Of a DNA stretch of 64,000 nt, positions 30,723 to 59,704 are shown one piece after another. Where the stretch lies: the NCBI GenBank assembly GCA_003537575.1, contig DPRS01000016.1, forward strand, positions 1,898 to 65,897, read 5' to 3'. The translations under genes were made by a program, and so were the position numbers. The notes beneath the pieces are model-generated. The model saw only the letters and a program-made list of their open reading frames with translations. It searched no databases and was not told the DNA's origin. Position 1 is the first letter of the stretch, and the number at the start of each line of letters is the position of its first letter. Source of the stretch: Oxalobacteraceae bacterium (GTDB taxonomy: Bacteria; Pseudomonadota; Gammaproteobacteria; Burkholderiales; Burkholderiaceae_D).

Positions 30723-30762
30723 CGCTGAATTGGCGCTGTTTGACAATAAGTGGCGCAATTAT

Positions 30763-30824: not shown

Positions 30825-30920
30825 CGTGGCATCGAAGGTTCCTCTGCGGCCACTGACTGGAGCTGCCAAGTGCAAATTGCAGTTTGTCAGATACTGATTT
30901 ATACTTCTGACATAGGAGTC

Positions 30921-32592: not shown

Positions 32593-32735
32593 CAAGGGTT
32601 ACTGACGACGCCACGCCACGCCCCGCTGCGCAGCCAGAACTATCAAGCATTTTAGGATCGTTGCCTCACGGTGAATTTCCCGAATTACCGCTAACGATCA
32701 GTAGTTCCAATATGAATTTCATATGGAGAACTTTG

Positions 32736-33010: not shown

Positions 33011-33172
33011 ACCTCATGCTCTCTATTGCAAAAAAGAAGAGATCAATGTTGTGATTCTGAAACCAACTTCTGGTTAAATGCACAATTGCAATCAATGCAA
33101 GGAGTCGATATGATGAAGTAATTATTGATTAATCACAATGTTGTGCAAAAGAAGCGTTTTGGGGGCAATTAC

Positions 33173-34381: not shown

Positions 34382-34389
34382 GGTGATAA

Positions 34390-34881
34390 ATGAACCACGG
34401 ATATATAGATACGAATCTGGTTCAGAATAGTTCTCTAGCATGCTTCATACTAACTACCTTTGTTAAAAGGTATGAGATAAACAGCGCTAGGACAAAAAAG
34501 CCCGAACTCATGAAGCTATTGCTTGTTTTGCCCATTGTATGGCATGAAGATAGTTGCAACGCTATCAAAAGCCGATTTCTTTCGACACCATTGCAAGCAG
34601 TGCTAGCAGAATGTCCAGAGATTAAGTATGAATTTGAAAAAAGATTAGGCGCATTTTCCCCTATAGCTCTGCAAGGCATTAACTTGGCGTGTGCGTCAGG
34701 GTTGTTACAAACGGTTTATGAGAATGAAACTCCTTATTTGTCTACGAATTTCGATAGATGGCCCCAAGGCAGTAAGCCGAATGAAATGCCTTCAGAAATG
34801 ATCGCTGCTATTGAGCGTTTATCTGTCTGGTTCAGAGAAAAGACAACGGCACAACTCTATAGTTGTTTAATTGAAGGCTAG
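34390..34881 (+). CDS. ABC-three-component-system middle component
   Basis: 163 aa with SLACFILTTFVKRY...ELMKLLLVLPIVWHEDS, which fits the small helical middle-component proteins found between effector and DUF3732 ATPase. The gaps to its neighbours are 8 and 3 nt. Confidence 0.6.
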   Translation: MNHGYIDTNLVQNSSLACFILTTFVKRYEINSARTKKPELMKLLLVLPIVWHEDSCNAIKSRFLSTPLQAVLAECPEIKYEFEKRLGAFSPIALQGINLACASGLLQTVYENETPYLSTNFDRWPQGSKPNEMPSEMIAAIERLSVWFREKTTAQLYSCLIEG

Positions 34882-34884
34882 CCA

Positions 34885-43165: not shown

Positions 43166-43253
43166 GGGAGCCGCTCCGACATCGTCCGCACCACGATGAC
43201 GTGCGCGGCCGGAAGGCGGAGCCGGGAAGGTCGCCGGAATCGCACCTCAAAAA

Positions 43254-43376
43254 TGTCTGAATGGTGGCCAACGCGAAGTCTAAAAACACACGGCGGCCCG
43301 CTCTGCCGCGCCAGGACTTGACGTACCTGGCCAAAGCCTTACCTCTGGTTCTACGGGGTACAGGGCAGGGCAGAAG
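43254..43376 (+). repeat. copy 1 of a diverged 123-nt element
   Basis: The left block TGTCTGAATGGTGGCCAACGCGAAGTCT and right block CCTCTGGTTCTACGGGGTACAGGGCAGGGC have starts 88 nt apart. This pairs with the copy at 46268. Confidence 0.6.
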
Positions 43377-43725
43377 TATTTGCATACAAGTCGGGTCGCA
43401 GTCCAACTAGAGTGGGAGTCAGTAGGAGATTCCTTGGCTGGTTATGGCGTCGCTGAGACTGCAGTCGTACTCCAGTCCGATTCGAGTCGTACCTTGCATG
43501 CGAATGAGGCCGGTTGCGTGCTTCAGGGATGGTGCATGGTCGTGATTCGGTGCCGCCTGATGGCAATTGACATGACTTGTGGGAAACGGGAAAAGCTCCC
43601 GCATCAAGTGTCATGAATAGGTGCGTCAGAAATGCCGTTTCCATCGCGAGAAGCAGACTTGACCGAGCGGGTTTCTGCGAGATGCTGGTGAGGTGATAAC
43701 GCTCGCCTTGCACAGGAGTCTCAGC

Positions 43726-44404: not shown

Positions 44405-45478
44405 TCAGGTGATGCTGTCTGTGCCGGGGAGATTGTCTTTTTTCGGCACCGACTTTGCACCCAGGTAAGCCTGGCTGATCGCCGTCCTGTTGTGGCCTAG
44501 CTGCTGGGAAACGATAAACAGCGCGCGGTCCAGTAGCTCGGGATCCTGCAGTGGATCGCCGCCGCGCACCGGGCATGCCACTTTGGTCAGGTCAAAATAC
44601 TTGTCGCCGGCAAACTGGTGGCGCAGGCCATGCCCGGTGATGCCTAGTTCTTTCTTTGATATGCCGGCCTGGCGCACCACGTTCTTGTAGCGGTCCAGCG
44701 ATTGCAGCAGCGTCTTGCCGGGATGGCCCAGATATGAGTTCGGATAAGGCGCATAGCGCCTGGCGCGCTCGATGACGTCGCGCTGCGCATCGGACACCAG
44801 CGGGATCAGGCGCAAGCGCCCGCCCTTGGTGCCGCGCTCGATCGACAGGCAGGCGATGTACTCTTCTGCGGCCGGGCCGTCGACCGGCACCAGCCCGGCC
44901 GGCACCACCGCCCGGTGCGGCTGGAACATCACCGCTTCCTTGCGGCGCAGGCCGGTGCGCCATACCAGCTCCAGCATGATCGCCACCCGCTCGTCGATGC
45001 GCGCCACGCGCGCGAGCAGCTGCGGGATTTCGATGTCCTGCGAGGTCCAGCTCTTGTCGTGCTGGGCGACATAGGCGCGCGCAAACAGCGCGGGATCGAT
45101 CCCATAGGCCTTGGGCGGCAAGATCAGGCCGGGCTTGCCGATCCACTGCGCGTACGTGTTCAGCGTGCTGGCCAGGAATTGCAGGTAGGCCGCGCTATGG
45201 GGCTTGGCCAGCATCGGCACGGCATGTTGCGTGCACAGCTTTGCGATGCGGGGATCGCACGTCCAGTACCAGAGCAGGTGCCTGACATGGTTGCCGCCGA
45301 GATTGTGCGGATCGAGCTGGAATTTGAGTGCGCGCAATAGCTTGAACGTCACGAAGAGAGCACCCGCGCGCGCGGCCTGCGTGCGGTGCGATACACCCTT
45401 GGGGCGTTTCGCGTGGCGGTGGTTGTGCAGGTCGATGATCGCCTGTAGCCTGGCCTTCCAGTCCGAATTGTTGCTCAT
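44405..45478 (-). CDS. tyrosine recombinase/integrase-domain protein
   Basis: The catalytic set is visible: TGLRRKEA (Arg), GHGLRHQF (His-x-x-Arg) and LGHNRTAISQAYLG (His...Tyr). Confidence 0.8.
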   Translation of the reverse strand: MSNNSDWKARLQAIIDLHNHRHAKRPKGVSHRTQAARAGALFVTFKLLRALKFQLDPHNLGGNHVRHLLWYWTCDPRIAKLCTQHAVPMLAKPHSAAYLQFLASTLNTYAQWIGKPGLILPPKAYGIDPALFARAYVAQHDKSWTSQDIEIPQLLARVARIDERVAIMLELVWRTGLRRKEAVMFQPHRAVVPAGLVPVDGPAAEEYIACLSIERGTKGGRLRLIPLVSDAQRDVIERARRYAPYPNSYLGHPGKTLLQSLDRYKNVVRQAGISKKELGITGHGLRHQFAGDKYFDLTKVACPVRGGDPLQDPELLDRALFIVSQQLGHNRTAISQAYLGAKSVPKKDNLPGTDSIT

Positions 45479-46267
45479 TGCTCCCTCTCAAGCGGCTGCC
45501 GCAAACTGGCGGTGCGACGTTAAATCGATCAGGCAAGTCACGCACGGCAGCCGCAGACCGTTTGCGGCTGCCATGCGGGGCCAGAATGTCATTTCAGCGG
45601 CCGGCCCGGTTGCCGCTGAAAAGTGGATGGAATGAGTCTTCAAAATATGCGTGCGAGAATGCAGCCGGATTTCGCCGACGTGCATCTCCCCGCCAGGAGG
45701 GCGGGCGCAGCAAGCACGAATGCGCCGCTGCGACAACCGGGCGCAGGCCCAGGTACAGCAAGACATGGATGTCATATGGCCTCCTTTCCGAAAGCATCCA
45801 TCGGCCCCATGAGCGGGCCGCCGATCGGGTGAGTGCAGGGGACGGCGCGCGCCACCTCAGGGGCGACGCAACGCCGGACACGCAGGGCCGAATTCCTGCG
45901 AAAGCGCACTCGAAAGAAAAGGCAGAGAAAAGCTATTGCATCGATCCGGTCGATGTGGGGTGGGTCAAGCCCGTTTGATGAAGCAACCTGCTACAGGCGA
46001 GAGGCGGGCGCAATGCCCGCTTGTCGCCGAATGAAACACTAAAGCCACATGAGGTGGCTGACGGCAATTGATGCCGAACTTCAGGGCAGTTAACGTCTGC
46101 GTCCGCCGCGATTCGAGCGCGATGCTCAGGATGCGGAGTCCGGGAAAATCGGTCATCACGGAGCTGCGCCTATGCGCATGTCGCTGATGGCATGAACAGT
46201 TTGGCAAATGCGGTGGCAGTTATCAAGTTATTGTGTTTGATGGCGCGCAGGGAATGCGTATGCAAAT

Positions 46268-46389
46268 TGTCTGAATGGAGGCTGGCGTGAAGTCTGGCGG
46301 CGGTACGAATGGCGGCACGCCGCGTCTGGCATGGGCAAGCCGATCGGAAGGCTTGCCTCTGGTTCTATGGTGTGCAGGGCACGGCGAAG
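46268..46389 (+). repeat. copy 2 of the diverged 123-nt element
   Basis: TGTCTGAATGGAGGCTGGCGTGAAGTCT (23/28 identical to copy 1) and CCTCTGGTTCTATGGTGTGCAGGGCACGGC (26/30) keep the same 88-nt offset. An internal GCCGCG sits at the same position in both copies. Confidence 0.6.
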
Positions 46390-47292
46390 AAAAATCAACG
46401 CATGACGCCATGAGGGCGTTCTACATCATTTCTGCACATGCACCGGCAGAGCCGCATGGCCTGGTTGGTGTCGCCTACCAGTCACCGAAAACTTGCGGGT
46501 AACAAGGGCAGCCTGCGCGTGCACCGGCAATGGCCTTGCGTGCGCCTGCCAGGCGGTCGAATCAACGCCAGCAACAAGTGCCGCCGAAACGGAGCAATTT
46601 CGCGATCATCGTTCGAAGGTGGCTTGTGAATACTGATCGGATGTGACAAGCTTTTACTGGACGAATAGCGGGATTGGCATCAATGGAAAAACAATCCGAT
46701 TGCCGCGATGTTGCGCGATTCGCCTGCTGTACCGGAAGCTGGCACCCGTCCGCATTGTGCGGTAAAGCAAGCCCTTACGTAACCGAGCGCCGCTCACGAA
46801 TCACTTTTGACCGGCATGCGTTTTCCCATAAGGGGAAACGTGCAATGCAAGGATCTTACGTCCTGTGCTGCATGGACAGGCTGATACGCCGCTTGCGTGT
46901 CTGACATACGGCATGCATCTCAATCTAAGGCAGTGACATCAGCATGTCGCTCCCCAGGAGCACGGTGGTCGCTGCCTGAATTTCTCTTCCAACTTCGATT
47001 GCCGTTTAAATTTGATGCGCTTGTCCATCGTGTAGACAGAGTGCGCGCACATGTGACGAGCAAGCAGCGGATGCGACCCGACTAAGTTCGGCAAACCAGC
47101 CACGAAGCAGCGCTTTGTGCGCCTTCTGCAGCCACCATTGCAATTCCATTTTGTGCCGTCACGAAGCGGCCTTTTCCCCGGACGCCAGGGCGTGGCATTT
47201 GTGCGCCGCGCAGTCGCGCTTGATTTTGTGGTGCCTTGATTTTGCAAATTGTTGATGCATTCTTGAACTGAATGAATAGAAAGGAGATCAAT

Positions 47293-47508
47293 ATGGAACC
47301 AGATATTTCATCATCACAGGAAATTCGCTTCATCAGATTGCCAGAAGTGCTGGCACTGTGCGGAAAGTCGAAAAGCAGTATCTACCTAGCGATCAAGAAC
47401 GGTGAATTCCCTGCGCCGGTAAAGCTGTCCGCCCGGTCATCCGCGTGGGTGCATAGCGAAATTACGGCATGGGCCGCTGCCCGCATCAAGGCCAGTCGGC
47501 CACTCTAG
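47293..47508 (+). CDS. alpA: AlpA-family transcriptional regulator / excisionase-like protein
   Basis: The ATG follows AAGGAG. The motif is FIRLPEVLALCGKSKSSIYLAIKNGEFPAPVKLSARSSAWVHSEITAW. Confidence 0.8.
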   Translation: MEPDISSSQEIRFIRLPEVLALCGKSKSSIYLAIKNGEFPAPVKLSARSSAWVHSEITAWAAARIKASRPL

Positions 47509-47528
47509 GATAAGCAAGCATGAGAAAC

Positions 47529-47572
47529 GCGCGTCCAAAAAGAACTATTGCTGGACGCGCTATTTTATTATT
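47529..47572 (+). terminator. rho-independent terminator after alpA
   Basis: GCGCGTCCA-(14 nt)-TGGACGCGC is followed by TATTTTATTATT. Confidence 0.55.
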
Positions 47573-48130
47573 GCAGGTGCAAGCTGGCGGATCGAGATGT
47601 TGGCTCTTACGCTAATCTGACAATTGCTCATTTTAAAGACGTGGTTTGGCATGCCAGTCAAGTATTACAAGCAGTATTCTCTTCAAATCGGTTCGTTTCG
47701 ATTCACGATCGGTTCAACATGGCCCTTGGTTGCTTTTGCCTTTAGGTCCGCTTAAAAATGGAGGGATTGCCCAATTACACGGGGCATTCTACTGACTACA
47801 ATGCGCTACTCCAATCAAGTTTCGCCCAGCTAATTAACCAGAATTTCATATTATTGGCCACGCAATTTGTTAACATCACTTATTTCGCATACTTAAGAAA
47901 AATTAATTTCGATATTAATTTTTTGAGTCGTGTTCCTTCGTACTACCATTTGTCTCTCTAGAATCTAGAATAGTGCCAACAGTTAAAAATCTTCCGCCCA
48001 TCTGTGCTACCGTAAAAATCACCAGCCGGCCTGCTTTTACGGCATTTTGGCCAAGCTGCCACGCTCACCCAGCTAGTATTGACTGCACTCTCAATACGGC
48101 TAGCCGCCGCGACTTGATTGGGGACTGCTG

Positions 48131-49372
48131 ATGAGCGCCATTGGATGGGTCGATTTTTCTTCAACCGATAGGGAACTGGTATCGAAAATCATCGACATGC
48201 TTGCAGAGCCCGGCACCTTGGACGAAATAGGGATCGGACAGATTCGTGACGCCTTTTCAGACACGCTGTTTCCTGGATTTTCGACTATTCAGACACGCGC
48301 CCGCTATTTCCTGGCCGTTCCGCAAATTTTCCGGGATTATTTGAGGCTAAGTGCCAAAGAAAAAAGGAGGCGCCCGTTTCACTTGTATTTAAAGGATTGC
48401 GAAAACCAGCTTGCGCAGAGCCTTGTCGACAATCACAAGGGGCGCGAGGATGATTTACGGGGGATTATTGGCAGCACGTTGGTCGGAAAAGGGGGCGTGG
48501 CTCGTCTACCATCCTCCATCTACTGGAACGGACTTAAAAAATTTAGGATTGTCAACACAGAGTTGTCTCTGTCAGAGTTTTGCCGCTCGATGGCAAATAT
48601 AGACGATGCTTATGTGGCGGTTGTAGAAGATAAAGATGGTGAGGATGATCGTGATGCGTTGCGCCGACGGGAAATCGTCCGATTAACGCCAATATACGAT
48701 GATGGCTGGATTTCGAAAGCCGTTTTGCCGTTGACCAGGAAAGAGGCAGAATTTCTGCGTGACCAAATTCGGTTTTCTCCTGCTATGACGCACAGCGTCC
48801 CGGCTCAGTTATTAGAGGTCAAACTGCTGGATAAAGCAATCAACGGGCAATTCACGACATTTGAACAACTCGCCGATTGGCTTAACACGGAAGAGAAAAT
48901 CTCTGCCCAATGCCGCGCTGCCATCGGCAGTGCCCAGGAATTCAGCCGCATGCAAATTGGTGCGCAGATCCGCCTGGACTGTTTGGTTGCAAAGCGGCAC
49001 CATCAAGATGACCGGCTCAAGCAATGGGAAGACGAGTACGCGCGCTGGGAGAAAGAAAGCAGACAGCAAGGATTATTTCAGAGAGATGCGACGGATAGCT
49101 GGTTGAAATTTACATCCGCTCTCGGTATTAAAGTACGGCCCAAAACCGTCGCGTTCTTGCGAAACTGGAACGTAATGATGCATGCGAATAGCAAACCTGA
49201 CGAACTCGATGCTCTCGTCGAAAAACGCTGCCTGGATAACAAGAAAGAACACTCGGTACTGCGGCGTTCCCCATCAAAAGACATTGGACAAATCGGGACA
49301 AGGGCGCTTGATTACCGCTGGTTACAGACGCAACGAATTCTGCGGGATATTTCTGAGGGCCTGAAATGCTAG
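48131..49372 (+). CDS. protein of unknown function (DUF6361-like), first gene of a three-gene module
   Basis: 413 aa with N-terminus GWVDFSSTDRELVSKIIDML.EPGTLDEIGIGQIRDAFSDTLFPGFSTIQTRARYFLAVP. I see no catalytic motif. Confidence 0.7.
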   Translation: MSAIGWVDFSSTDRELVSKIIDMLAEPGTLDEIGIGQIRDAFSDTLFPGFSTIQTRARYFLAVPQIFRDYLRLSAKEKRRRPFHLYLKDCENQLAQSLVDNHKGREDDLRGIIGSTLVGKGGVARLPSSIYWNGLKKFRIVNTELSLSEFCRSMANIDDAYVAVVEDKDGEDDRDALRRREIVRLTPIYDDGWISKAVLPLTRKEAEFLRDQIRFSPAMTHSVPAQLLEVKLLDKAINGQFTTFEQLADWLNTEEKISAQCRAAIGSAQEFSRMQIGAQIRLDCLVAKRHHQDDRLKQWEDEYARWEKESRQQGLFQRDATDSWLKFTSALGIKVRPKTVAFLRNWNVMMHANSKPDELDALVEKRCLDNKKEHSVLRRSPSKDIGQIGTRALDYRWLQTQRILRDISEGLKC

Positions 49373-51195
49373 ATCCAAAATCCAACCGGCTGGATTACGG
49401 TGACCAGCTCCGGCCTCCTGCCGGGTACAAGTATGACGTTGCCGTCGCCACCACGTATTCTCTCGATTTGAACACCATCTTGGCCGTACCCGTCTCGCTT
49501 TGTTTTGATGACACGTTGGAAGGGGATCTGCGAGGAGAAAAGATCGCGCTCCTAGAGGCGCTTGAGCAGTTGCGCGGCCGGGTTAAGATTTTCTTTCAGC
49601 AGGGGAATATTCCGGTTCCCGCAGAGTTCAATCGCCTCTATGCCCTGCTCGAGCCATTCTTGGCGCCGATTGTTCCCAAGGCGGATGGAGGCAACGATGC
49701 ATTCACGTCATTTCATCCAAAACTATGGCTGCTTCGTTACTGCGAAAAAGCCAATAAGCGGAACAAAAAATATCGATTGATCGTATTAAGCCGCAACCTC
49801 ACGTTCGACCGGAGTTGGGACCTTGCGGCATCGCTTGATGGTGAGCCAGCGGTTACGATTAATGACAGCAGTGAGCCACTCGCCGAATTCCTGCATTCGC
49901 TCATTCCTCATGCGAAGGATTTTCATCCATTGGCCGAGCTTGCCAGGGAAGTACGGAGAGTCAAGTGGGATGCTCCGAAAGGTTTTCGTGACGTTCAGTT
50001 CCTTCCAGGTGGTGGTGCCCATATTGCCGATCCAAATGAAAGATTTGGCTCGCCAATGGATTTGGGCAAAAAAATCGACGAGGTCATGGTGGTATCCCCG
50101 TTTCTGGATGATCGGCCGCCGAGGGTGCTGACCCATTTTGAAAGCTGCACAATAGGGCAAAGGTTTTTGTTCAGCCGCGCTTCCACACTTGATGCGATTG
50201 GGTCAGAAGCATTAAAAAAATGGTCCTGTTATGCACTGAACGAATCCGTTGTTCTTGGTGAGGACTATCTCGAGCAGGGTGAGTCACAACCTCATGACCT
50301 CCATGCCAAGCTCATCATTTCCTGTGCAGGAAAACAAGTACATTGGCACTTGGGGTCGGCCAACGCTACCACTGCCGCATTGGGGAAACTCGATGAGACC
50401 GCCCCGCGAAATACAGAATTCATGCTCCGCCTGACGTCTACCCAGGAATTGTCCCCGTCCTTGCTGCTTCAACAGTGGGTAAGCGAAGGCGGTGCGGGGT
50501 TATTCGTCCCGCATGTATTCAAAACCGGCCAGACAGATTCGGATGAGAATCATGCGACAGCATTAAGGCGGCTTTCGCATGATTTGATTGCTGCACAGTG
50601 GAAGCTCTGCGCGACAGTTGGAGAAGCTGTCAATTACCACCTTAAGCTTGACGTTTCACCCCAGATATATCTACCCACCGGCTTTGAAGTGCAGGTTGGA
50701 ATCATGGCGGATCAACACCACTTCCAACCGTTGGCCTCGGCGATTGAATGGAAAAATCTTAAGCTCACCAGGATCAGCGCATTTGTGCCGCTGAAAATTA
50801 GCGGGCCGGGGGACATCGAAAAGACACTGGTTGTGAAAGCGGACTTGGCCATCGAGGGAGGCGACACGCGTGTGTCAGCCGTCATTACCGAGCTGATCGA
50901 CACACCTGAAAAGTTCATGAATTATGTGCGCCTGTTGCTGTACCGGGATTCGTCCAAGTCGCAATGGATAGGTGCGGACATGGATCCTCGCAATGCCGGC
51001 TTGCATGAACTATTCGGATTTGATGCCACAGAAGGGTTGTTCGAGCAGCTGATGTATGCCGCGTCGCGCCATCCCGAGCAGCTGCAGCGGGTGGGAGATC
51101 TGATCAATCGCTTGCAACGGCTGGAGACGACGATACCGGAGCAATTTCTGACGCTTTGGAAATCGTTCTCCCCTTACGCCCGGGCGCCATCATGA
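49366..51195 (+). CDS. phospholipase D/Nuc-family (HKD) phosphodiesterase, probable nuclease
   Basis: There are two HKD-type motifs: FHPKLWLL...LIVLSRNLT and LHAKLIIS...WHLGSANAT. The ATG overlaps the upstream stop region (ATGCTAG). Confidence 0.85.
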   Translation: MLDPKSNRLDYGDQLRPPAGYKYDVAVATTYSLDLNTILAVPVSLCFDDTLEGDLRGEKIALLEALEQLRGRVKIFFQQGNIPVPAEFNRLYALLEPFLAPIVPKADGGNDAFTSFHPKLWLLRYCEKANKRNKKYRLIVLSRNLTFDRSWDLAASLDGEPAVTINDSSEPLAEFLHSLIPHAKDFHPLAELAREVRRVKWDAPKGFRDVQFLPGGGAHIADPNERFGSPMDLGKKIDEVMVVSPFLDDRPPRVLTHFESCTIGQRFLFSRASTLDAIGSEALKKWSCYALNESVVLGEDYLEQGESQPHDLHAKLIISCAGKQVHWHLGSANATTAALGKLDETAPRNTEFMLRLTSTQELSPSLLLQQWVSEGGAGLFVPHVFKTGQTDSDENHATALRRLSHDLIAAQWKLCATVGEAVNYHLKLDVSPQIYLPTGFEVQVGIMADQHHFQPLASAIEWKNLKLTRISAFVPLKISGPGDIEKTLVVKADLAIEGGDTRVSAVITELIDTPEKFMNYVRLLLYRDSSKSQWIGADMDPRNAGLHELFGFDATEGLFEQLMYAASRHPEQLQRVGDLINRLQRLETTIPEQFLTLWKSFSPYARAPS

Positions 51196-54100
51196 CTAGC
51201 GCATTCGAGCTAATCCAACTTTCGCTTGGCAAGCTGACCGACTTTCAGCGTGCGACAGTCGAGGCGGTAGTGCAGCAGTTTGCTCGAGGCCAGGATCAGG
51301 CACCGCGAATCCTAGTGGCGGACGAAGTCGGGCTTGGAAAAACCGTCGTTGCCCGGGGTGTTATCGCCAGAATGCTTATGCAGCACCAGGCTGAGGAGGG
51401 CAAGGCTAAGCCAGGCAAACCCTTGCGCGTCATGTACATTTGCTCAAACCTTGCTCTGGCCAGCGAAAACGCACGCAAGCTTGCAATCTTTTCCGGGGTG
51501 CATGAGGAACAGTTTGTACAGGCACCGTCATTTGGCCGCCTGGCCGAAATCGCAGTGGCGATTACGTCTAATGAGTCAGGGAAGATGCTCGAGATCTGTT
51601 CGCTGACGCCGGCGACATCATTTACTCTGACACATGGGAATGGCAACGCACGAGAACGTTGCATTATCTATCGTGCACTCGCCAGTCATTCTGCGCTAGG
51701 GGGCATTTCCGGGTGGTTGAATACATTTTTCTCAAAGGATGTCGCCAGCTGGGAAGATGAGCAAAGGTGGCTGGCAACCCGCACATTGGTGCAATCGATC
51801 CTTGCGGATTTTCATGAAGAACTGGCCGAGCCTCCCCAGCTGCCACAGGCCGACCTTGCCGAGTTGGCGAGCTATGGGGTCACCTGCACATCTTGGCTGT
51901 TATTGCTGAACGGGCTTGCGGCATTGGGGGGCGAAAAAGCCAGTGTGGCAAACCACATTCGCAGTGCGCTACGCGTCTTGTTCGTTCGTTGCTGTGCAGC
52001 CAACCTGTCTGCCGACTTGTTTATCCTGGACGAGTTCCAGCGTTTCAGGGACTTAGTATCTTCCGACAAGGAGTCGGAGGAGGGCATCATTGCACGACAG
52101 GTCTTCTCGAAGTCCAACTCCGGCAAGGTGCTTTTGCTATCAGCAACGCCTTTCAAGGCGCTTACGCATATTGACGACGAGGGTGCCAAGGATGCGCATC
52201 TTGAAGAATTTCGCGAACTCCTGCGCTTTCTAATCAAGAATGATCCCGCGAGCATTAGCGAATATGAGGTACACCGCGAGCATCTGCTGGCCCAGCTACT
52301 GAAGCTACGTGATCCGAGTGTACGTATAGCCGATTTGGATGCGGGAGCGAAGAAAAAGGTCGAATCCGTATTGCGTCCGTTAATTTGCAGAACTGAACGT
52401 AGTCAGGTGAGTAAGGACGTCAACTCGGTCCTCGTGCAGCTGGACGCACCTTGCGATGCAGCCTTGTCAAAAGGCGAGATTGAATGTTTTGCGGCCTTGG
52501 ATCAGCTCGGGAAAGCGCTGCATGAGATTGATCCGGCAGTCATTCCAAGTCAACTGATGGAGTTTCACAAAGCCGCACCTTGGGCATTGTCATTCCTTGG
52601 CGGATATCAATTCAGGAAGCGGCTCGTGCAGCAGGAAGAAAGAGGTCTTATTGATGAGGCCCGCAAGCGGTCGAAGAAAGCATGGTTGCCCATTGAGCGG
52701 ATGGCCAACTTCGAGATCAACCTGGAAAAAGAAACCCCGCATAGCAAATTCAGTGCATTATCGAAATTCGCACTAGGGGAGCGCGGTGAGCAGCTGCTCT
52801 GGCTGCCTCCGAGCCTTCCATATTATTCCTGTGAAGGGCCGTTCAAGGGTCAGGAGAAGTTTTCCAAGACATTGCTGTTCTCCAGTTTTCTGCTTGCCCC
52901 AAAAGCGCTAAGCGGCTTGCTGTCATATCAGGCGGAACGGCGGCTGCTTGGAAAAAAACGCTCTAGTGGACGCTACTTTGGAGACCATAAAGTTCCCTCG
53001 AGCATCCGCTTCGATGCCAACAGCAACCTCGCACATTGGTCGCTCGTTTATCCCTCAAAGACACTTTGCCAAATCGCCATTCGTCCTACGGGTGAAACGT
53101 ATTCCGCCTATTTGAAGCGAATCAGATTAGAAGTGCGTTCCCAGATGGCGCAGCTCGCCAGCTATAGGACACGCCTTGGAAAACCAGACAAACGCTGGTA
53201 TGCGCTCGCGCCTTTTTTTCTCGATTTATCTGATGGCACAGAATACGTTGAAACTTGGTTCGACCTGGGGGATGTTACTTCGAATGATGGCAAAGCCAGC
53301 AAAGGACGGGGTGGCAGGCATGATGATCTTCGTGATGCGGTGTTAGTGGCCCAGCACGACTTAGGTGACTTTCCGCTGGATTTGGAAGAGCATTTGGCGG
53401 AACTAACCATTGCCGGTCCGGCCAATTGTATCTACCGTGCGCTTTGCGCCGTATGGCCGCAAGACGATGCCGATTTCATATTGCTTGCATCGCGGGCAGC
53501 CTATGCAATCGTCAAGCTCTTCGACAAGAAAGAAGGACAACAGGTCCTGAATCGGTTCAAGGCTGACTACAAATTCAATTTCAGCAACTGGCGCAACCTG
53601 CTTAAGTACGCGGCCGTTGGGAATCTGCAGGCGATGCTGGATGAATACCTGCATCTTCTCGCTGGGGAGGGCGGACCGGCAGCCGCAATCGAAAAGCTTC
53701 TCAATGCCGTCGGGATCATGACGACAAATGTCACTGCTCAGGCGTACGACCGCAGAACCCAAGAAGTATCGCTTTCCTGCCATTTCGCCGTCCCGTTGGG
53801 AAATCAGAAAAGCACGGATGAAAAGGGCGCCACGCGTATTGTCAATGTGCGGGACGCATTCAATTCCCCATTCTGGCCTTTTGTATTGAATTCCACCTCG
53901 ATTGGTCAGGAAGGGCTGGATTTTCATTGGTATTGCAGCCGCATCGTTCATTGGAACCTCCCGTCTAACCCGATCGATTTCGAGCAGCGGGAAGGCCGTA
54001 TCAACCGATTCAAAGGACTGGTCGTGCGCAGGCGTGCCGTCGAAAGGTTTGGCCAGACTTTCTCGATCAGCGACGGTGATGTCTGGAAAAACCTGTTTGC

Positions 54101-54887
54101 CTACGCAGACGAAGTGACGGGGCGTGATCCATCATCCGGACGTACTAGCGACCTAGTTCCGTACTGGCATGTTCCGGGTGCGATGAACGCGGTGATCGAA
54201 CGGGTGGTCCCGATTCTGCCGTTTAGTCGTGAAGAGCAGCGATTAAAGAATATCTTGCGGATCCTGTCTCTTTACCGGGTGGCATTTGGCCAGCCGCGGC
54301 AGCAGGAGCTGTTGCAATATCTTTTGCAGCGACCGGGTGGCGATGCAGAAGCTAGGGAAATTGAGGAGACACTCCTGATTGACCTTGCACCGATTAATTA
54401 CTTGGATGACCTTGATCCTTACAAACCGGGTCCTGGAAGAGTATCCGCTGAAGAGATGGAGCATCCGGGAACCGGTTTCTCTCACAGCGTATTGTTTGGG
54501 CCAAATCCTTCTCACGCAAGGTCGCCAAAGCGGGAGCTCGTCTGGCAGGAATTGAAGCGCCTGGAACAATTCGGCTTGGGAAGGTGCGAAATCGTGAGTC
54601 CGTCACGGGATAAGTTCGTCTTGCTCGATACCCATCCAAATGCGGCACGGCTGACACTCCGCCCCAAAGCGAATGGATTCATCCGGGCGGACAATGACAG
54701 TCTCCTGTTTCGAGATGCAGCATCGGATTTGATTAGCCAGATACCTTCAGCTTTATCCGCAAGACGTCTCAATGGACAGAAAGGCTTGGAGCTTCGATGG
54801 AACGCTCTCACGGAATCTGACATTCAGGATTTATTTCATACAATACAGCAGCTGGCATCATCGGTTCCCTCTAGTAGTTCTACCTGA
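51192..54887 (+). CDS. large SF2 (SNF2/RapA-like) helicase-related protein
   Basis: ATGA overlaps the PLD stop. Motifs are LVADEVGLGKT, FILDEFQRFR, LLLSATPF, IGQEGLDFH and FEQREGRINRF. The final ~250 aa have no recognisable motif. Confidence 0.85.
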   Translation: MTSAFELIQLSLGKLTDFQRATVEAVVQQFARGQDQAPRILVADEVGLGKTVVARGVIARMLMQHQAEEGKAKPGKPLRVMYICSNLALASENARKLAIFSGVHEEQFVQAPSFGRLAEIAVAITSNESGKMLEICSLTPATSFTLTHGNGNARERCIIYRALASHSALGGISGWLNTFFSKDVASWEDEQRWLATRTLVQSILADFHEELAEPPQLPQADLAELASYGVTCTSWLLLLNGLAALGGEKASVANHIRSALRVLFVRCCAANLSADLFILDEFQRFRDLVSSDKESEEGIIARQVFSKSNSGKVLLLSATPFKALTHIDDEGAKDAHLEEFRELLRFLIKNDPASISEYEVHREHLLAQLLKLRDPSVRIADLDAGAKKKVESVLRPLICRTERSQVSKDVNSVLVQLDAPCDAALSKGEIECFAALDQLGKALHEIDPAVIPSQLMEFHKAAPWALSFLGGYQFRKRLVQQEERGLIDEARKRSKKAWLPIERMANFEINLEKETPHSKFSALSKFALGERGEQLLWLPPSLPYYSCEGPFKGQEKFSKTLLFSSFLLAPKALSGLLSYQAERRLLGKKRSSGRYFGDHKVPSSIRFDANSNLAHWSLVYPSKTLCQIAIRPTGETYSAYLKRIRLEVRSQMAQLASYRTRLGKPDKRWYALAPFFLDLSDGTEYVETWFDLGDVTSNDGKASKGRGGRHDDLRDAVLVAQHDLGDFPLDLEEHLAELTIAGPANCIYRALCAVWPQDDADFILLASRAAYAIVKLFDKKEGQQVLNRFKADYKFNFSNWRNLLKYAAVGNLQAMLDEYLHLLAGEGGPAAAIEKLLNAVGIMTTNVTAQAYDRRTQEVSLSCHFAVPLGNQKSTDEKGATRIVNVRDAFNSPFWPFVLNSTSIGQEGLDFHWYCSRIVHWNLPSNPIDFEQREGRINRFKGLVVRRRAVERFGQTFSISDGDVWKNLFAYADEVTGRDPSSGRTSDLVPYWHVPGAMNAVIERVVPILPFSREEQRLKNILRILSLYRVAFGQPRQQELLQYLLQRPGGDAEAREIEETLLIDLAPINYLDDLDPYKPGPGRVSAEEMEHPGTGFSHSVLFGPNPSHARSPKRELVWQELKRLEQFGLGRCEIVSPSRDKFVLLDTHPNAARLTLRPKANGFIRADNDSLLFRDAASDLISQIPSALSARRLNGQKGLELRWNALTESDIQDLFHTIQQLASSVPSSSST

Positions 54888-55215
54888 ATCATCGTCAGAA
54901 AAGAGCGCTCTTTGCATAATAATTTACTTCTCCAATCAACCTGTTGGTGCAGGATATGTTTACCGTCTCTGATAAAGAAAATTAACCATCATCTCTTGCC
55001 TTTGCGATGGAGCAGGCCAAAATTGCTCGAAAAATGTGTTCGACTGGCAGATATGCTTCCGCTCTCAGAAATGAGCATGCTAGGAAAAAATTAACGGACC
55101 GTGACGCCTGGCGATTCGTGCGGTGCTAATCAGCGGCAAATTTGGAATCGGAAGTTGTGCGTTACTTCCAATTTTGCTATTCTACGCAGCACCCCAATGA
55201 TGACTGAAGGAAAAC

Positions 55216-55437
55216 ATGGTCCGCTGCCATCTCTCCACCCTGATGGGTCGAGAAAAGCTCCGCATCTCAGACGTCTCACGCCTAACAGGTTTGAATCGCA
55301 GTACAGTCAGTGCCTTGTATAGGGAGACGGTGACACGTCTGGATATGGCTGCTGTTGATGCCCTGTGTCGCTTGTTTCGTTGCCGAGTAGGGGACCTTTT
55401 CGAATATGTGCCTGATGGCGATGGGAGTGCTTCGTGA
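55216..55437 (+). CDS. XRE-family HTH protein
   Basis: LRISDVSRLTGLNRSTVSALYRE is the HTH motif. Its stop overlaps the GTG start of the kinase gene (GTGA). Confidence 0.75.
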   Translation: MVRCHLSTLMGREKLRISDVSRLTGLNRSTVSALYRETVTRLDMAAVDALCRLFRCRVGDLFEYVPDGDGSAS

Positions 55438-58400
55438 CGCTTGGTGCTTCCCGATGGCACGTCATTGCCGAATCTAATTTCGTTTGGGAGCGAGAGGCCC
55501 TTGAGTGGCTGCGGGCCAACTTGCCCGATCGAGATTCTTGGCATGTTTGGACCAACTTCGAGTTCATCGACGATGAGGGAAAAGTCAACGAAGTCGATGC
55601 ACTGGTGCTGTCCCCGGCTGGCCTTTTTTTGGTTGAAATTAAGAGCCGGCCAGGTGTCCTTCGTGGGGATTCCCATAGCTGGACGTGGATTACCGACGGT
55701 CGCTCATCAACGTATGACAATCCACTAATTCTGGCTAATCGCAAAGCTAAGCGCCTAGCTAGCCTACTGAGGCGCCAATCGGCGATCGTCAAGGCCAAGA
55801 TTCGACTTCCATTCGTTGAACCCGCCATATTTCTGTCGTCCAGCAGCCTTTCCTGCCAATTGGAAGGCTTGGCCAAGAGTGCCACATTCCAGCAAGGGCG
55901 GCCAGGGTCGCTGGACGACCCTGGTATCGTCGGCGCCTTAAGCAACGGCATTACAACGAAGGCGACGGTGCCCGTAGACGCCACGCAGGCCCGTGCCATT
56001 GCTAGAGGCTTGGCCGAGGCGGGCATTCGCCCGTCAAATAAGCATCGTCAAGTCGGGGACTATAGATTAATCAAACTGATTGCTGAAGGCGAAGGCTTCC
56101 AGGACTGGGAAGCGACCCATGTCAGCATCGACACCATACACCGGCGCGTGCGCATCTACACTGTAGCCACTGCGTCAAGCCCGGAAATTCGTGCAACCCG
56201 ACTGCGGCAGGCTCGCCGCGAGTTCGAAGTGCTTGAAGGCATCGATCACCCAGGCATACTGCGTGTCAAGGACTATAAAGAAACCGAACTCGGTCCAGCA
56301 CTGATCTTCGATCACGAACCTAAGGCCGTGCGGCTGGATCACCTGCTTCGTGAGAAAGGCAAGACGCTCACCATTTCACAGCGCCTGCAACTGGTACGTG
56401 ACATCGCTGAAACATTAAAGTATGCGCATGCCAAGCGCCTGTACCATCGTGCCCTAGGCCCACAAAGTATTCTCGTACATGGAGTGGATGGGGCCATCAT
56501 GCATCCACGCCTGATGAATTGGCAAACCGCCTCACGCAATGTTGGCGATTCTGCAGCACCAGACACTGTCCACCGTACAACCGGCACACGCCACGTTGAG
56601 GATTACGTCGAAGATCCAGGCCTGGTTTACCTTGCTCCCGAAACCACTCGGGCCGATCCTGCACAGGGTCCTAGCCTTGACGTGTTCTCGCTTGGCTGTA
56701 TCAGCTTTTACATTTTCACTGGGCAGCCCCCGGCGGAGTCAACCCTGGATCTGGCCGAAAAACTGCGTATTGGTCAGGGCTTGCGACTGTCTGACACAAT
56801 GGATGGTTGCGGCGCTAGGCAGCAAGACCTGATTCAGTTCGCAACCTCGCCGGACCTGCTAGCACGCTACGACACGATTCAGGGTTTCCTCGACGACCTT
56901 GACTTGGTCGAGGACGAACTGACTACGCCGGATCCCGAAGCCACCGTCGATCCCAGTATCGCCAGCACGGGCGATCGGTTGGAGGGCGGCTTCACCGTCA
57001 TTAAACGCATGGGCCGTGGCTCCTCCAGCGACGCCTTGCTGGTACGCCGCGATGGCAGCGAAGATGAGGCCATCCTCAAGGTGGCTTGCGACATTGCCCA
57101 TAACGAGCGGTTGGTGGCCGAGGGCGAGGTGCTGGCTCGACTTCACCACCAGAACATTGTGGCTCACCGAGAGACACTCACCATCTCCGGCCGTACCGCG
57201 CTTTTGCTCAAAAGTGCTGGTGCCAAGAACTTGGCAGAAAAGCTCAAGGAAGAGGGCCGTCTGTCGCTCGACATGCTGCAGCGCTTTGGCGAAGAGCTGA
57301 TCGAGGCCGTCAACCACCTCGAATCCGAGGGCGTGGCACACCGCGACATCAAGCCCGAGAACATCGGCATTTCGGAGAACCGCAACAAAAGGCTGCAGCT
57401 GGTGCTGTTCGATTTCTCGTTGTGCCGCACGCCCGCGGACAACATTACGGCTGGCACCCATCCTTACCTCGACCCCTTCCTATCTCTGCGACGCCCGCCG
57501 CGTTGGGACCTGTATGCTGAACGATTCGCCCTGGCCGTCACGCTCTACGAGATGGCGGTAGGCCAGCCACCCGTTTGGGGTGATGGTCAGACCTCACCAG
57601 CGATGCTGGACGTCGAAGCTACCATCGAAAAGGATGTTTTTGACCCAGTTACTCGTGAAGGCTTCGCCAGCTTCTTCGAGAAGGCGCTCAAGCGCGACTT
57701 TCGCGAGCGCTTCGATAACGCGGAGGAGATGCTCCGAGCCTGGCGCGCCATTTTTACAGCACGCCAGACAGTACATCCAAGCGACGCTGCGCCGGCCATT
57801 GGCTTGGCTGCGATTGCGCCCACGGCAACCCCGCAGACAACCATGGCGGAACTGGGCTACAGCCTTGAAGCCCAGGATGTGCTAGAGCGCATGGGTGTGC
57901 ACAACGCCCGCGAGCTGCTCGCGGTGGATCGCATTCGTTTTCGTTACCTCAAGGGTGTGGGTGACAAGATCCGCAAGGAAATCCGGCTCACAGCCAAGGA
58001 GCTTGCCCGTTTGCGGCCTGACCTCACCCAGGGGCGAAGTGTCGCGCACGATGCGGATGAGGAAGCCGAAGGCGCTGTCAGCATCAATGAATTGGCCGCT
58101 CAGTTGTTGCCCCGGCGGCCGGCCGGTGACGACAGGCCGGAAGAAGCCGCCCTGGCACACTACCTTGGCCTTGACGACACTGTAAAGGCCGGCGCCTGGC
58201 CAAGCCTGGGGGATGCTACTCAGGCTGGCGAGGTCGATCGCGCCACGCTGACTTCGACTCTGATCAAGTCGCGCGAGCGCTGGCTCAAGAACCCCGCCTT
58301 CACCGAACTGCGCCACCAGCTCGATTCGCTTGTGCGCAGCCAAGGCAATGTGATGAGCGCGAAAGAAGCCGCGCTGGCCTTGCTGGCCCTACGTGGCTGT

Positions 58401-59693
58401 GCCTCCCAAGACGATGCCGAACGCCTGCGCCAGGCCACCGCTGTCTTGCGAGGTGCGATGGAGGCAGAGTCTCATCTCGACAAACCCCGCTTTGAGGCTT
58501 TTGACCACCAGCCGTCCCTACTGATCGCCAGCGCTGCCGCTTGGGCCGACTATGCACGCCAGTTGGGCGCCGCAGCCGATGCTTGCGCGCTCGCAGACCC
58601 TTTGCTGCCGCCTGCCCGCGTGCTGGAAATGCTGGAAGGCGTTGCCCTGCCAGCGGCTGAACAGCTTGGCGGCATCGTGCCCACACCGATCACGCCTACC
58701 CGCTTGCTGCGCTTGGCTGCCTCGGCATCACGCACGGCCGCCGTCTCCAGCCGGCAAGAGATGTATGCGCGTGGCATGGCACCCATCCAAGCGCTACGCC
58801 AATCCTTGGGCGCGCTGGTTGGCGCGCCTGAGCTAAGGGTCAAAGACATCCAGGACCGCGTCAGTGGGCGCTACCCCGAGGCGTCGGCGTTGCCAGATCG
58901 CCCCAGCCTGGACCGCCTGCTGGAAGAGGCCGGCGCACCCTTGACCTGGGACATGGCCGCGGCCGATGGTAGAGGTGCCTATCGGCTGGCCACCCTTGGC
59001 CGAGGACAGACGGCCGGCACCACTACCCAGTTTTCTCGCCATGCCACCCTGCAGACCACCCATGTGTTGGGTGATGACGTTGCCCAGGCTGCCGCAGTGG
59101 AAGAGCGCCTGGTTCGCTCGCTGGACCAAGGCGGCCTACTAGTACTTTCGGTGCCTACGCGCATCGCACGCCACGCAGAGGCCGAACTGCTGCACCGCTT
59201 CGGCAATGCCGCCACATCGGCTATGGCCGTGAAGCGCATTAACTTTGACGCGCTTTTACTCGCCGCCCTGCATCAACAGGTGCAAGCTGCACGCGTGGAT
59301 TGGAACGTCGTACTGCAAGCAGATGCAGCTGAACGTGGCAGCCGGCACTGGACCAACTTGCAGCGCCTGGTGCAGCGCGCTGTGCCTTCCGTGCGAGCCG
59401 CTTTGCTGAACAGCCCATCACCGATCCTGCTGGTGTGCGTGGGCTTACTGGCCCGTTATGACCTAATGAATCTGGTCACCGAACTGGAAGAGCATGCCGG
59501 CCGGCCCGGTCACACGCCAAGCGCCTGGATGCTGCTGCCTTCGAGCTATCAAGGCTTGCCCGTCATCGACGGTGTGGCTGTACCACTAGTTAACAACATT
59601 CACAATACCCGGACCCTGGCACTGCCACAGGCCTGGGTAGAAAACAAACACCGGGCCAAGACAGGCAGCTACGCCAGTCCATCCGCTACCTGA
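55434..59693 (+). CDS. pglW: PglW-like protein: NERD domain + pseudokinase + Ser/Thr kinase + long C-terminal region (BREX type 2)
   Basis: NERD motif is NEVDALVLSPAGLFLVEIKSRPG. The first kinase-like domain reads LYHRALGPQSILV with no catalytic Asp. The second has VAHRDIKPENI, LFDFS and GTHPYLDP. Confidence 0.85.
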   Translation: MTLGASRWHVIAESNFVWEREALEWLRANLPDRDSWHVWTNFEFIDDEGKVNEVDALVLSPAGLFLVEIKSRPGVLRGDSHSWTWITDGRSSTYDNPLILANRKAKRLASLLRRQSAIVKAKIRLPFVEPAIFLSSSSLSCQLEGLAKSATFQQGRPGSLDDPGIVGALSNGITTKATVPVDATQARAIARGLAEAGIRPSNKHRQVGDYRLIKLIAEGEGFQDWEATHVSIDTIHRRVRIYTVATASSPEIRATRLRQARREFEVLEGIDHPGILRVKDYKETELGPALIFDHEPKAVRLDHLLREKGKTLTISQRLQLVRDIAETLKYAHAKRLYHRALGPQSILVHGVDGAIMHPRLMNWQTASRNVGDSAAPDTVHRTTGTRHVEDYVEDPGLVYLAPETTRADPAQGPSLDVFSLGCISFYIFTGQPPAESTLDLAEKLRIGQGLRLSDTMDGCGARQQDLIQFATSPDLLARYDTIQGFLDDLDLVEDELTTPDPEATVDPSIASTGDRLEGGFTVIKRMGRGSSSDALLVRRDGSEDEAILKVACDIAHNERLVAEGEVLARLHHQNIVAHRETLTISGRTALLLKSAGAKNLAEKLKEEGRLSLDMLQRFGEELIEAVNHLESEGVAHRDIKPENIGISENRNKRLQLVLFDFSLCRTPADNITAGTHPYLDPFLSLRRPPRWDLYAERFALAVTLYEMAVGQPPVWGDGQTSPAMLDVEATIEKDVFDPVTREGFASFFEKALKRDFRERFDNAEEMLRAWRAIFTARQTVHPSDAAPAIGLAAIAPTATPQTTMAELGYSLEAQDVLERMGVHNARELLAVDRIRFRYLKGVGDKIRKEIRLTAKELARLRPDLTQGRSVAHDADEEAEGAVSINELAAQLLPRRPAGDDRPEEAALAHYLGLDDTVKAGAWPSLGDATQAGEVDRATLTSTLIKSRERWLKNPAFTELRHQLDSLVRSQGNVMSAKEAALALLALRGCASQDDAERLRQATAVLRGAMEAESHLDKPRFEAFDHQPSLLIASAAAWADYARQLGAAADACALADPLLPPARVLEMLEGVALPAAEQLGGIVPTPITPTRLLRLAASASRTAAVSSRQEMYARGMAPIQALRQSLGALVGAPELRVKDIQDRVSGRYPEASALPDRPSLDRLLEEAGAPLTWDMAAADGRGAYRLATLGRGQTAGTTTQFSRHATLQTTHVLGDDVAQAAAVEERLVRSLDQGGLLVLSVPTRIARHAEAELLHRFGNAATSAMAVKRINFDALLLAALHQQVQAARVDWNVVLQADAAERGSRHWTNLQRLVQRAVPSVRAALLNSPSPILLVCVGLLARYDLMNLVTELEEHAGRPGHTPSAWMLLPSSYQGLPVIDGVAVPLVNNIHNTRTLALPQAWVENKHRAKTGSYASPSAT

Positions 59694-59704
59694 AAGTTTC
59701 CCTA

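Follow-up and report, generated by a model that had tools for sequence, protein, structure and literature searches.

The locus considered here lies in a 64,000-nucleotide stretch of DNA from an Oxalobacteraceae bacterium (the window), where three co-directional genes, referred to below as zacA, zacB and zacC, are found between an AlpA/recombinase module and a Pgl/BREX operon. The features are as follows.

44405-45478, minus strand: tyrosine integrase
47272-47508, upstream flank: AlpA
47509..48130, plus strand: leader between alpA and zacA, 622 bp, 43.9% G+C
48131..49372, plus strand: zacA, 413-aa DUF6361 protein
49366..51195, plus strand: zacB, 609-aa predicted PLD-superfamily (HKD) nuclease
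51192-54887, plus strand: zacC, whole ORF, 1231 aa from the ATG
51192..54407, plus strand: zacC core (residues 1-1072), SF2/SNF2-like ATPase
54408..54518, plus strand: ZacC linker (residues 1073-1109), 37 residues, Pro/Gly-rich
54519..54887, plus strand: extra C-terminal alpha/beta domain of ZacC (residues ~1110-1224), with a short tail and the stop codon
54888..55215, plus strand: spacer between the module and the HTH-pglW-pglX operon, 328 bp, 43.9% G+C
55216-63475, same strand as the three genes: HTH-PglW-PglX

In the initial annotation, the three genes at 48131-54887 were described as translationally coupled, with overlapping stop and start codons, and this is confirmed by the ORF coordinates, with a 7-nt overlap (ATGCTAG) between the zacA stop and the zacB start and a 4-nt overlap (ATGA) between the zacB stop and the zacC start. 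In other genomes, the -7 nt junction is shared by 19 loci and the -4 nt junction by 35, which makes the overlap a conserved feature and not a product of chance. The zacC frame is already open from a TTG at 51156, upstream of the ATG. No methyltransferase gene is found within the three-gene module, as had been stated of a self-marking methylase, and the flanking gene assignments agree with the position originally given between the AlpA/recombinase and Pgl/BREX modules. The low G+C content reported for the module against flanks of about 60% also holds (0.524 as compared to 0.597 in each flank), and this difference points to a foreign origin of the module. The AT-rich leader that had been noted ahead of the three genes is likewise present and presumably holds the operon promoter; it contains no supported ORF and no Rfam match, and promoter-like matches within it are no commoner than in shuffled sequence. 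In the spacer on the other side, two hairpins (54940-54953 and 55150-55169) weakly resemble terminators, and promoter and terminator scans of leader and spacer gave counts near those of shuffled sequence. Rfam gave no match anywhere in the window at its gathering thresholds and none in 45.4-48.2 kb at E<=1. The window also contains SoFic-like, AbiEi/AbiEii, Lamassu LmuACB, DpdF/GajB-like double helicase and BREX type 2 PglW/PglX genes, which together make up a defence island.

The PADLOC and Pfam profile searches proposed in the initial annotation assign all three products, where it had ventured a tentative likeness to Azaca (ZacABC), and the models fit nearly end to end. ZacA matches the PADLOC ZacA model over residues 2-412 (model positions 3-395 of 396, E 4.5e-93) and the Pfam family DUF6361 (PF19888; E 4e-25, 89 bits with a cut-off of 25), so that the earlier description of gene 1 as a protein of 413 residues stands, while that of a protein without assignable motif does not. 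Structure prediction and a fold search had also been suggested for this protein, and these gave an all-alpha AlphaFold model (pLDDT 82, pTM 0.80) that matched no known fold in a Foldseek search against the PDB (best E 0.78). The sequence is at most 52% identical to any other ZacA.

The second protein had been read as a PLD/Nuc-type phosphodiesterase with two HKD motifs, and this reading is supported by the PADLOC ZacB model (residues 1-604 on model positions 1-580 of 586, E 6.7e-154), by motif conservation and by matches to solved structures. The first HKD-type motif is H117-x-K119...S142-x-N144 and the second is H313-x-K315...S331-x-N333. Residues H117, K119, N144, H313, K315, S331 and N333 are invariant in 66/66 ZacB sequences, and position 142 is serine in 61 of these and threonine in 5. 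Searched against the PDB, a ZacB profile aligns best, though weakly, with two PLD nucleases, R.NgoAVII (E 0.01) and NucT (E 0.35), in both cases on motif 2, and none of the Pfam PLD models matches at E<=0.01. On the basis of the motifs, the PADLOC model and the weak PDB matches, ZacB is classed as a predicted PLD-family nuclease. A locus scan with ZacB as single query found nothing, which is a limit of that method.

ZacC matches the PADLOC ZacC model over residues 12-1069 (model positions 10-1018 of 1019, E 4.2e-276) and is at most 56% identical to any other ZacC. Its assignment as an SF2 helicase of about 1231 aa is upheld both by this model and by the conserved motifs I (GLGKT, 47-51), II (DEFQ, 280-283), III (SAT, 317-319) and VI (QREGR, 932-936), which are kept in 68-70 of 70 ZacC sequences (GLGKT and DEFQ in 68-69), with the two RecA lobes split by an insert of ~580 aa. 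Of the ~250-aa tail that had been left unassigned, residues ~940-1072 belong to the conserved ZacC C-terminal region; only the last 159 residues (1073-1231) are extra and have no counterpart in other ZacC proteins.

The three genes share the domain classes of a PLD nuclease and an SF2 helicase with DISARM and Mokosh, and the initial annotation had seen a partial likeness to DISARM DrmC/DrmD. DISARM (DrmA, DrmB, DrmC, DrmD/DrmE, DrmMI/MII) similarly contains DrmC as PLD nuclease and DrmD as SNF2 helicase and restricts phage DNA, and local DrmD and DpdE matches are found on the ZacC helicase C motif. However, the NCBIfam DrmD match reaches 54 bits as compared to a cut-off of 610 and spans only ~40 residues (898-940), DrmC and Mko models give no match to ZacB at E<=0.01, and none of the three proteins matches MkoA, MkoB or MkoC at that threshold. 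The DrmA/DrmB core of DISARM (helicase plus DUF1998) and its methylase are missing, with no DrmA, DrmB, DUF1998 protein or methylase in 47.5-55.2 kb, in contrast to the nearly full-length fit of the ZacABC models. The DrmC/DrmD likeness is therefore not sustained, and a DISARM-like or Mokosh-like system, with an SNF2 or RNA helicase beside the nuclease, is extremely improbable here; with matches that are local and sub-threshold and partner genes that are missing, membership of both was rejected.

A functional parallel to Azaca is offered by the CglI/NgoAVII-type ATP-dependent restriction enzymes, which according to Zaremba et al. and Toliusis et al. reportedly consist of a PLD-family R-protein and a helicase-like motor protein. 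As in Azaca, the PLD-family nuclease of these systems depends on a separate SF2-type ATPase for DNA cleavage, and among solved structures R.NgoAVII (4rct) matches the ZacB profile best, through the second HKD motif. Unlike Azaca, these enzymes are two-component and sequence-specific, have a B3-like DNA-binding domain and are accompanied by a cognate methyltransferase. Azaca lacks a methylase, has two HKD half-sites per chain and requires ZacA as a third subunit. ZacB shows no detectable similarity to R.NgoAVII beyond the HKD motif.

Relatives of ZacA are found in 269 species-representative genomes, and a scan with a ZacA alignment retrieved 80 reference-genome Azaca loci that span at least six phyla. 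The initial annotation had asked whether the triad is conserved as a unit, and in these 80 loci zacA, zacB and zacC are adjacent, co-directional and in the same order in every contig that is long enough, with the exception of one degraded copy (L060); the closest relatives of the present locus also have the contiguous and co-directional order A-B-C. Together with the models and the defence-island setting, this synteny bears out the earlier idea of a defence triad made up of a nuclease, a translocase and a partner. The module is very probably an Azaca (ZacABC) anti-phage system, horizontally acquired as a three-gene cassette in an Oxalobacteraceae defence island. It shares with Azaca elsewhere the same three families, their order, the overlapping junctions, intact HKD and Walker A/B motifs, the lack of a methylase and the location in a defence island, and differs in being proteobacterial and divergent and in carrying the 159-residue ZacC extension, which is present in no other ZacC examined. 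As the initial annotation had itself allowed, unambiguous assignment to a characterised system removes novelty, not function.

The same loci bear on the relationship with the neighbouring operon, since the triad immediately adjoins HTH-PglW-PglX on the same strand and could in principle be a non-autonomous nuclease-helicase arm of this type 2 BREX (Pgl) system, in which PglX methylation would mark self. A helicase (BrxHI) is a normal part of type 2 BREX loci, BrxHI models match ZacC weakly at residues 898-940 (E 6.7e-08), and the remaining BREX locus extends past the window edge. However, no PglW or PglX orthologue lies beside the triad in the 80 other Azaca loci, where only weak partial matches were found (2 and 1, respectively), and the closest relatives are located beside type II CBASS or unrelated genes. 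The G+C content of the module also sets it apart from its flank, a 328-bp AT-rich spacer lies between the two operons, pglW is directly preceded by a gene for an HTH regulator, and the Bacillus Azaca is functional alone when transplanted (bioRxiv 10.1101/2025.07.10.664194). A role as BREX accessory is thus very unlikely and was rejected on the lack of co-occurrence in the 80 loci; Azaca and the type 2 BREX beside it are two separate systems.

The discovery of Azaca is reportedly the work of Millman and colleagues in 2022. A passage of PMC10952713 cites Millman et al. 2022 for Azaca. Azaca is a validated anti-phage system. Protection and ATP-, HKD- and ZacA-dependent cleavage of phage DNA have been shown for the version from Bacillus massilioanorexius only, which protects against T4, prefers T4 DNA in vitro, and cuts T4 DNA only when ZacA, ZacB and ZacC are all present and both the HKD site of ZacB and the Walker A motif of ZacC are intact (bioRxiv 10.1101/2025.07.10.664194). 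In that system, mutating conserved residues of ZacA made no difference in vitro, and glucosyl-hydroxymethylcytosine has only been suggested as the cue (bioRxiv 10.1101/2025.07.10.664194). By orthology, we infer that the copy described here acts like the Bacillus system. Translational coupling would yield the three proteins in fixed proportion, which would assemble into one complex. In this complex, ZacC, as an SNF2-like SF2 ATPase, would engage or translocate on double-stranded DNA driven by ATP, ZacB, with two HxK...(S/T)xN half-sites in one chain, would cut the DNA via a phosphohistidine intermediate, and ZacA, as an all-alpha DUF6361 protein, would serve as an obligatory structural or licensing subunit. 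Azaca most likely senses a property of the invading DNA instead of marking host DNA, and would for this reason not need a methyltransferase. In Bacillus Azaca the property recognised is apparently the hypermodified DNA of T-even phages, and in that respect Azaca would be an ATP-dependent, modification-dependent (type IV-like) restriction complex. The proteins of the present locus are ~27-35% identical to Bacillus-type Azaca proteins in four loci (L057, L061, L068 and L073), with the B. massilioanorexius proteins outside this comparison; given this level of identity, target specificity may differ from that of the Bacillus type.

The extension of ZacC sets this copy apart. ZacC homologues all stop at query residue ~1070-1072, and the protein has 1231 aa here as compared to 1054-1139 aa elsewhere; the extension is absent from the best 120 ZacC homologues listed, from 69 ZacC ORFs in the reference loci and from the closest relatives. 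Residues 1073-1231 lie outside the PADLOC ZacC model and comprise the linker, which has no homologue and low model confidence, and a confidently folded α/β domain of ~115 aa (pLDDT 95-98 throughout). This domain has no match in Pfam, PHROG, PADLOC or the PDB, and fold searches against the PDB and BFVD gave none that was significant (best E 0.27). Weak matches to the DNA-binding domain of phage T4 MotA recur in these searches (TMt 0.53, probability 0.41) and are a lead only.

An exhaustive phmmer search places the domain in a rare family of 49 representative clusters, the best of which is 51% identical and 128 aa long, with the shared motifs GLG, RDKFxL, GFIRxD, LLFR and KGLEFRW. Most members are stand-alone proteins of ~120 aa, located on contigs that are mostly ~1 kb long. 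A metagenome scan with a narrow alignment (A8) gave only 10 loci, all short. In four members (P0243, P0253, P0262 and P0278) the domain is N-terminal to an HNH endonuclease, and in P0253 the HNH part has a weak match (E 0.002) to the NCBIfam 'phosphorothioated DNA-binding restriction endonuclease' model. Neighbours of the family include HsdM, Dcm, Vsr, an NERD helicase and OLD-TOPRIM. The pI of family members ranges from 5.9 to 10.7, is not consistently basic and is uninformative as a proxy for DNA binding. The commonest fusion partner is a 'YLWEV..YRYVGKA' module that looks GIY-YIG-like by eye; a PDB profile search with it gave 0 matches, and hhalign against a UvrC N-terminus gave only 16% probability. 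The 240-aa partner of P0257 and P0260 resembles a UDG by eye, which was unsupported on checking.

The fusion to ZacC is a singleton whose only sources are the MAG record and the Logan assembly of run SRR6485776, and it is possible, if rather unlikely, that a neighbouring small gene was joined to zacC by recent stop-codon loss, deletion or an assembly or sequencing error in the MAG, leaving a plain Azaca with an inert or harmful tail. Consistent with such an accident, the sequence is confined to those two sources, no other examined ZacC has the tail, most family members are stand-alone with N-termini that align exactly at the domain start, a 37-codon linker could be open by chance (P ~0.18), and the codon-usage fit of the tail (0.081) is poorer than that of every ZacC core window (minimum 0.185). 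By contrast, 159 codons of continuous frame are hardly expected by chance (P ~0.001), and the domain boundary lacks any in-frame ATG or GTG preceded by a ribosome-binding site. The conserved family residues are all intact and, together with the confident fold, argue that the domain is not decaying. It also speaks against an accident that one and the same protein sequence appears both in the MAG deposited at NCBI and in a Logan assembly made independently, although the two may derive from the same reads.

Because the family is recurrently fused to HNH nucleases and is found in defence and restriction-modification neighbourhoods, the tail domain is most likely, by prediction, an extra module that recognises nucleic acids or senses targets and thereby alters specificity. 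Some type IV restriction enzymes have an N-terminal DNA-reader domain joined to HNH (SRA-HNH, ScoMcrA-like). The tail-domain family likewise forms the N-terminal module of HNH endonucleases, but matches no known reader by sequence or fold, and its reader role is a prediction. A further proposal, tentative and on balance unlikely, is that the ZacC add-on is the first recognised case of a new family of nucleic-acid or modification readers, a portable targeting module used by HNH and other nucleases and as stand-alone proteins in restriction-modification and defence neighbourhoods, which here would retarget or broaden Azaca and offer a natural way into how Azaca chooses its DNA. The family is unnamed and is not known to have been described, and its fusion to ZacC is the one new feature of the locus.

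Overall, this is a known system with a divergent new member and a singleton domain fusion. That it was first picked out from the raw sequence shows that such a reading is able to identify a real defence system. With this locus, a family whose mechanism has only begun to attract study gains a divergent betaproteobacterial member, and the practical value is modest: a second Azaca, distant from the first, that could be used in biochemical comparisons. Its singleton ZacC fusion also draws attention to an unnamed domain family tied to HNH nucleases and restriction-modification neighbourhoods, and if the tail domain does bind DNA or a DNA modification, the fusion would be a natural experiment on target recognition by Azaca.

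The three coupled genes are confirmed as a divergent Azaca (ZacABC) member inside a rich defence island. The tentative Azaca assignment made in the initial annotation was borne out by near end-to-end matches of all three products to PADLOC models, namely ZacA (E 4.5e-93; residues 2-412 on model positions 3-395 of 396), ZacB (E 6.7e-154; residues 1-604 on positions 1-580 of 586) and ZacC (E 4.2e-276; residues 12-1069 on positions 10-1018 of 1019). In Pfam, ZacA is a DUF6361 protein (E 4e-25) and ZacC shows weak helicase domains only; a PLD domain was not found in ZacB at E<=0.01, and none of the three has an NCBIfam model. Each of the HKD-type and helicase motifs that had been noticed was found in the window proteins: ZacB residues H117, K119, N144, H313, K315, S331 and N333 show no variation across 66 ZacB sequences, and ZacC motifs I (GLGKT), II (DEFQ), III (SAT) and VI (QREGR) are kept in 68-70 of 70. 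Among solved structures, the ZacB profile matched best R.NgoAVII (E 0.01), a restriction endonuclease of the PLD family, and then NucT (E 0.35), both aligned at the second motif, HxK...GSAN. For ZacC, the motif I region has its closest resemblance to RapA, a Swi2/Snf2 protein. The structure of ZacA, predicted with confidence (pLDDT 82, pTM 0.80), found no match among solved structures (best E 0.78). Two other systems were rejected: Mokosh, which fails on its defining features, and DISARM, to which a partial likeness had been suggested. DISARM's defining features are missing, and the NCBIfam DrmD model, like those of DpdE and RapA, matches just short helicase motifs, far under its cut-off.

Azaca module and its flanks
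44405-45478, minus strand: tyrosine integrase, upstream of the triad
47272-47508: AlpA, upstream of the triad
47509-48130: AT-rich leader, 622 bp, 43.9% G+C
48131-49372, plus strand: zacA, 413 aa
49366-51195, plus strand: zacB, 609 aa
51192-54887, plus strand: zacC, 1231 aa counted from ATG
54888-55215: AT-rich trailer or spacer, 328 bp, 43.9% G+C
55216-55437: Cro/C1-type HTH gene, downstream of the triad, followed by PglW and PglX

The triad layout, the overlaps (7 nt, ATGCTAG, between zacA and zacB; 4 nt, ATGA, between zacB and zacC), the lower G+C content (52.4% in the module vs 59.7% in each flank) and the AlpA/recombinase and Pgl/BREX flanks agree with the initial annotation at every checkable point. 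Promoter, terminator and Rfam scans of the leader and spacer gave nothing above chance.

The triad proteins, from an Oxalobacteraceae MAG, belong to a family of 5973 ZacC-like and 1474 ZacA-like clusters, with ZacA relatives in 269 species-representative genomes. Eighty loci were fetched, spanning Proteobacteria, Planctomycetota, Verrucomicrobiota, Bacteroidota, Bacillota and one cyanobacterium, and on all long-enough contigs except one degraded locus (L060) zacA, zacB and zacC are adjacent, in order and on the same strand; the triad is kept as a unit, a point that had been left to be checked. The junction overlaps of the window rank among the commonest elsewhere (-7 nt in 19 loci, -4 nt in 35), PglW, PglX, AlpA, integrase and Lamassu were not found accompanying Azaca in the 80 loci, and the nearest relatives (ZacC 53-56% identical) are plain ZacABC triads, one lineage of which has a type II CBASS operon as its direct neighbour. 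It follows that the triad is a mobile and autonomous defence cassette, and its reading as a BREX accessory, with PglW and PglX not shared by the 80 loci, was rejected. L060 (Shewanella frigidimarina, NZ_RKKE01000003.1, 10001-12585) is an example of Azaca decay through internal deletion, where ZacA is cut off at residue ~175 and joined nearly directly to ZacC from residue ~412, and ZacB is gone. The metagenome contigs with the homologue P0004 (L090-L092), which are the closest relatives lacking the ZacC tail, carry a co-directional 570-aa gene ahead of zacA at a distance of 158 bp, which has no Pfam match and is not present in the window, as well as a CD-NTase-like gene 45 bp after zacC, with a type II CBASS operon on the opposite strand.

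Azaca was reportedly described as an anti-phage system by Millman et al. in 2022. That description is cited in PMC10952713, and Azaca has been recorded in Pseudomonas island hotspots (PMC12629846). According to a 2025 preprint (10.1101/2025.07.10.664194), Azaca of Bacillus massilioanorexius gives >10^6-fold protection against T4 and requires ZacA, ZacB and ZacC together; once purified, the complex degrades double-stranded T4 DNA preferentially, with glucosyl-hydroxymethylcytosine as the suggested cue. Activity is lost when the nuclease site of ZacB or the Walker A motif of ZacC is mutated, mutation of conserved ZacA residues has no effect, and neither structure nor stoichiometry could be obtained. 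Given orthology and intact catalytic residues, the products of the three coupled genes in the window would assemble into one complex, in which ZacC, an SNF2-like ATPase, would provide ATP-dependent engagement of DNA, ZacB, a PLD nuclease with two half-sites in a single chain, would do the cutting, and the all-alpha ZacA would serve as an obligatory subunit without catalysis. The absence of a methylase is consistent with sensing of a foreign-DNA feature rather than self-marking. By analogy, the nearest mechanistic counterpart beyond Azaca is the CglI/NgoAVII class, in which a PLD nuclease is driven by a helicase-like motor. This class shares with Azaca that pairing of nuclease and motor, but is two-component and has a methylase, whereas Azaca has three genes and no methylase.

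With further defence genes at 29358-36882, the island spans at least 35 kb.

Other genes and loci of the island
29358-30758, minus strand: SoFic-like Fic protein
30870-32592: AbiEi/AbiEii
33125-34381: LmuA (with ABC-3C CTD7 domain), part of a complete Lamassu
34390-34881: LmuC, part of the same Lamassu
34885-36882: LmuB, part of the same Lamassu
37066-42303, minus strand: double-helicase protein, 1745 aa
55216-63475: type 2 BREX (Pgl) locus, continuing past the window end

The 1745-aa protein has an unusual architecture, a DEAD/RecQ-like helicase, best matched in PADLOC by DpdF and PsyrT (lowest E 2.5e-116), fused in one chain to a complete UvrD/GajB-like SF1 helicase. In the BREX locus, the 73-aa HTH gene, whose stop codon overlaps the GTG start of pglW (1419 aa; NERD domain and two kinase domains), appears to be the operon's dedicated regulator; pglX (1256 aa) comes after pglW. 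An intergenic direct repeat of ~130 nt lies at 43250-43381 and 46264-46395, 3014 nt apart; its two copies, the only ones in the whole window, where chance predicts none, are 70-81% identical over two conserved blocks and have no Rfam match. Between them lies a small cassette made up of genes of 112 aa and 79 aa, the integrase and a 95-aa gene; the pair may represent either the att-like termini of an integrase element of ~3 kb or a regulatory or RNA element that has been duplicated. The ~1.5 kb between this cassette and alpA (45776-47271) has normal G+C (56-60%) and holds no called gene, convincing ORF or Rfam match (E<=1).

At 1231 aa, the window ZacC is longer than its counterparts in 68 intact reference loci (1054-1139 aa), and the 120 best homologues listed end at query residue ~1070-1072. 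The tail beyond (1073-1231) is a single open frame, the remaining five frames carrying 4-8 stops, and 159 stop-free codons would arise by chance with P ~0.001; its codon fit is lower than that of every window in the ZacC core. The domain within it has a predicted compact α/β fold (pLDDT 95-98), with no match in Pfam, PHROG, PADLOC or PDB sequences and no significant neighbour among PDB and BFVD structures. Searched exhaustively, 1.84 billion representative proteins gave 49 clusters (29 with E<=1e-10) that align with residues ~38-152 of the tail, the identity reaching 51%, none of them, apart from the window ZacC, ZacC-sized. Since there is no other such carrier, and the relatives' loci examined have no tail-family gene downstream of zacC, the fusion is a singleton. 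That it is a recent fusion, possibly inert or artefactual, seems rather unlikely; in the preferred reading, the tail may serve as an acquired module for targeting or sensing.

Two more members from a further search bring the tail-family set to 50 proteins, 29 of which are stand-alone or fragmentary with no sizeable flanks, the others holding the domain inside larger proteins. In four of these larger proteins Pfam recognises an HNH endonuclease domain, and seven (P0244, P0247, P0258, P0273, P0277, P0281 and P0291) share an unnamed ~140-aa module, placed either side of the tail domain, with invariant Y..W...Y.G..G..RP..Y.RNV.NLL.G..Y...K residues; the motif resembles GIY-YIG, a likeness unsupported by profile searches. 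Neighbouring genes include HsdM-type and Dcm methylases, Vsr, a NERD helicase, OLD-type TOPRIM/AAA_15, integrases and IS110 transposases, a restriction-modification, defence and mobile-element flavour that is qualitative and without an enrichment control. Because Azaca is already characterised, the finding is an ordinary one; the new detail, a small one, is the C-terminal domain fusion of ZacC together with the unnamed domain family that this fusion revealed.
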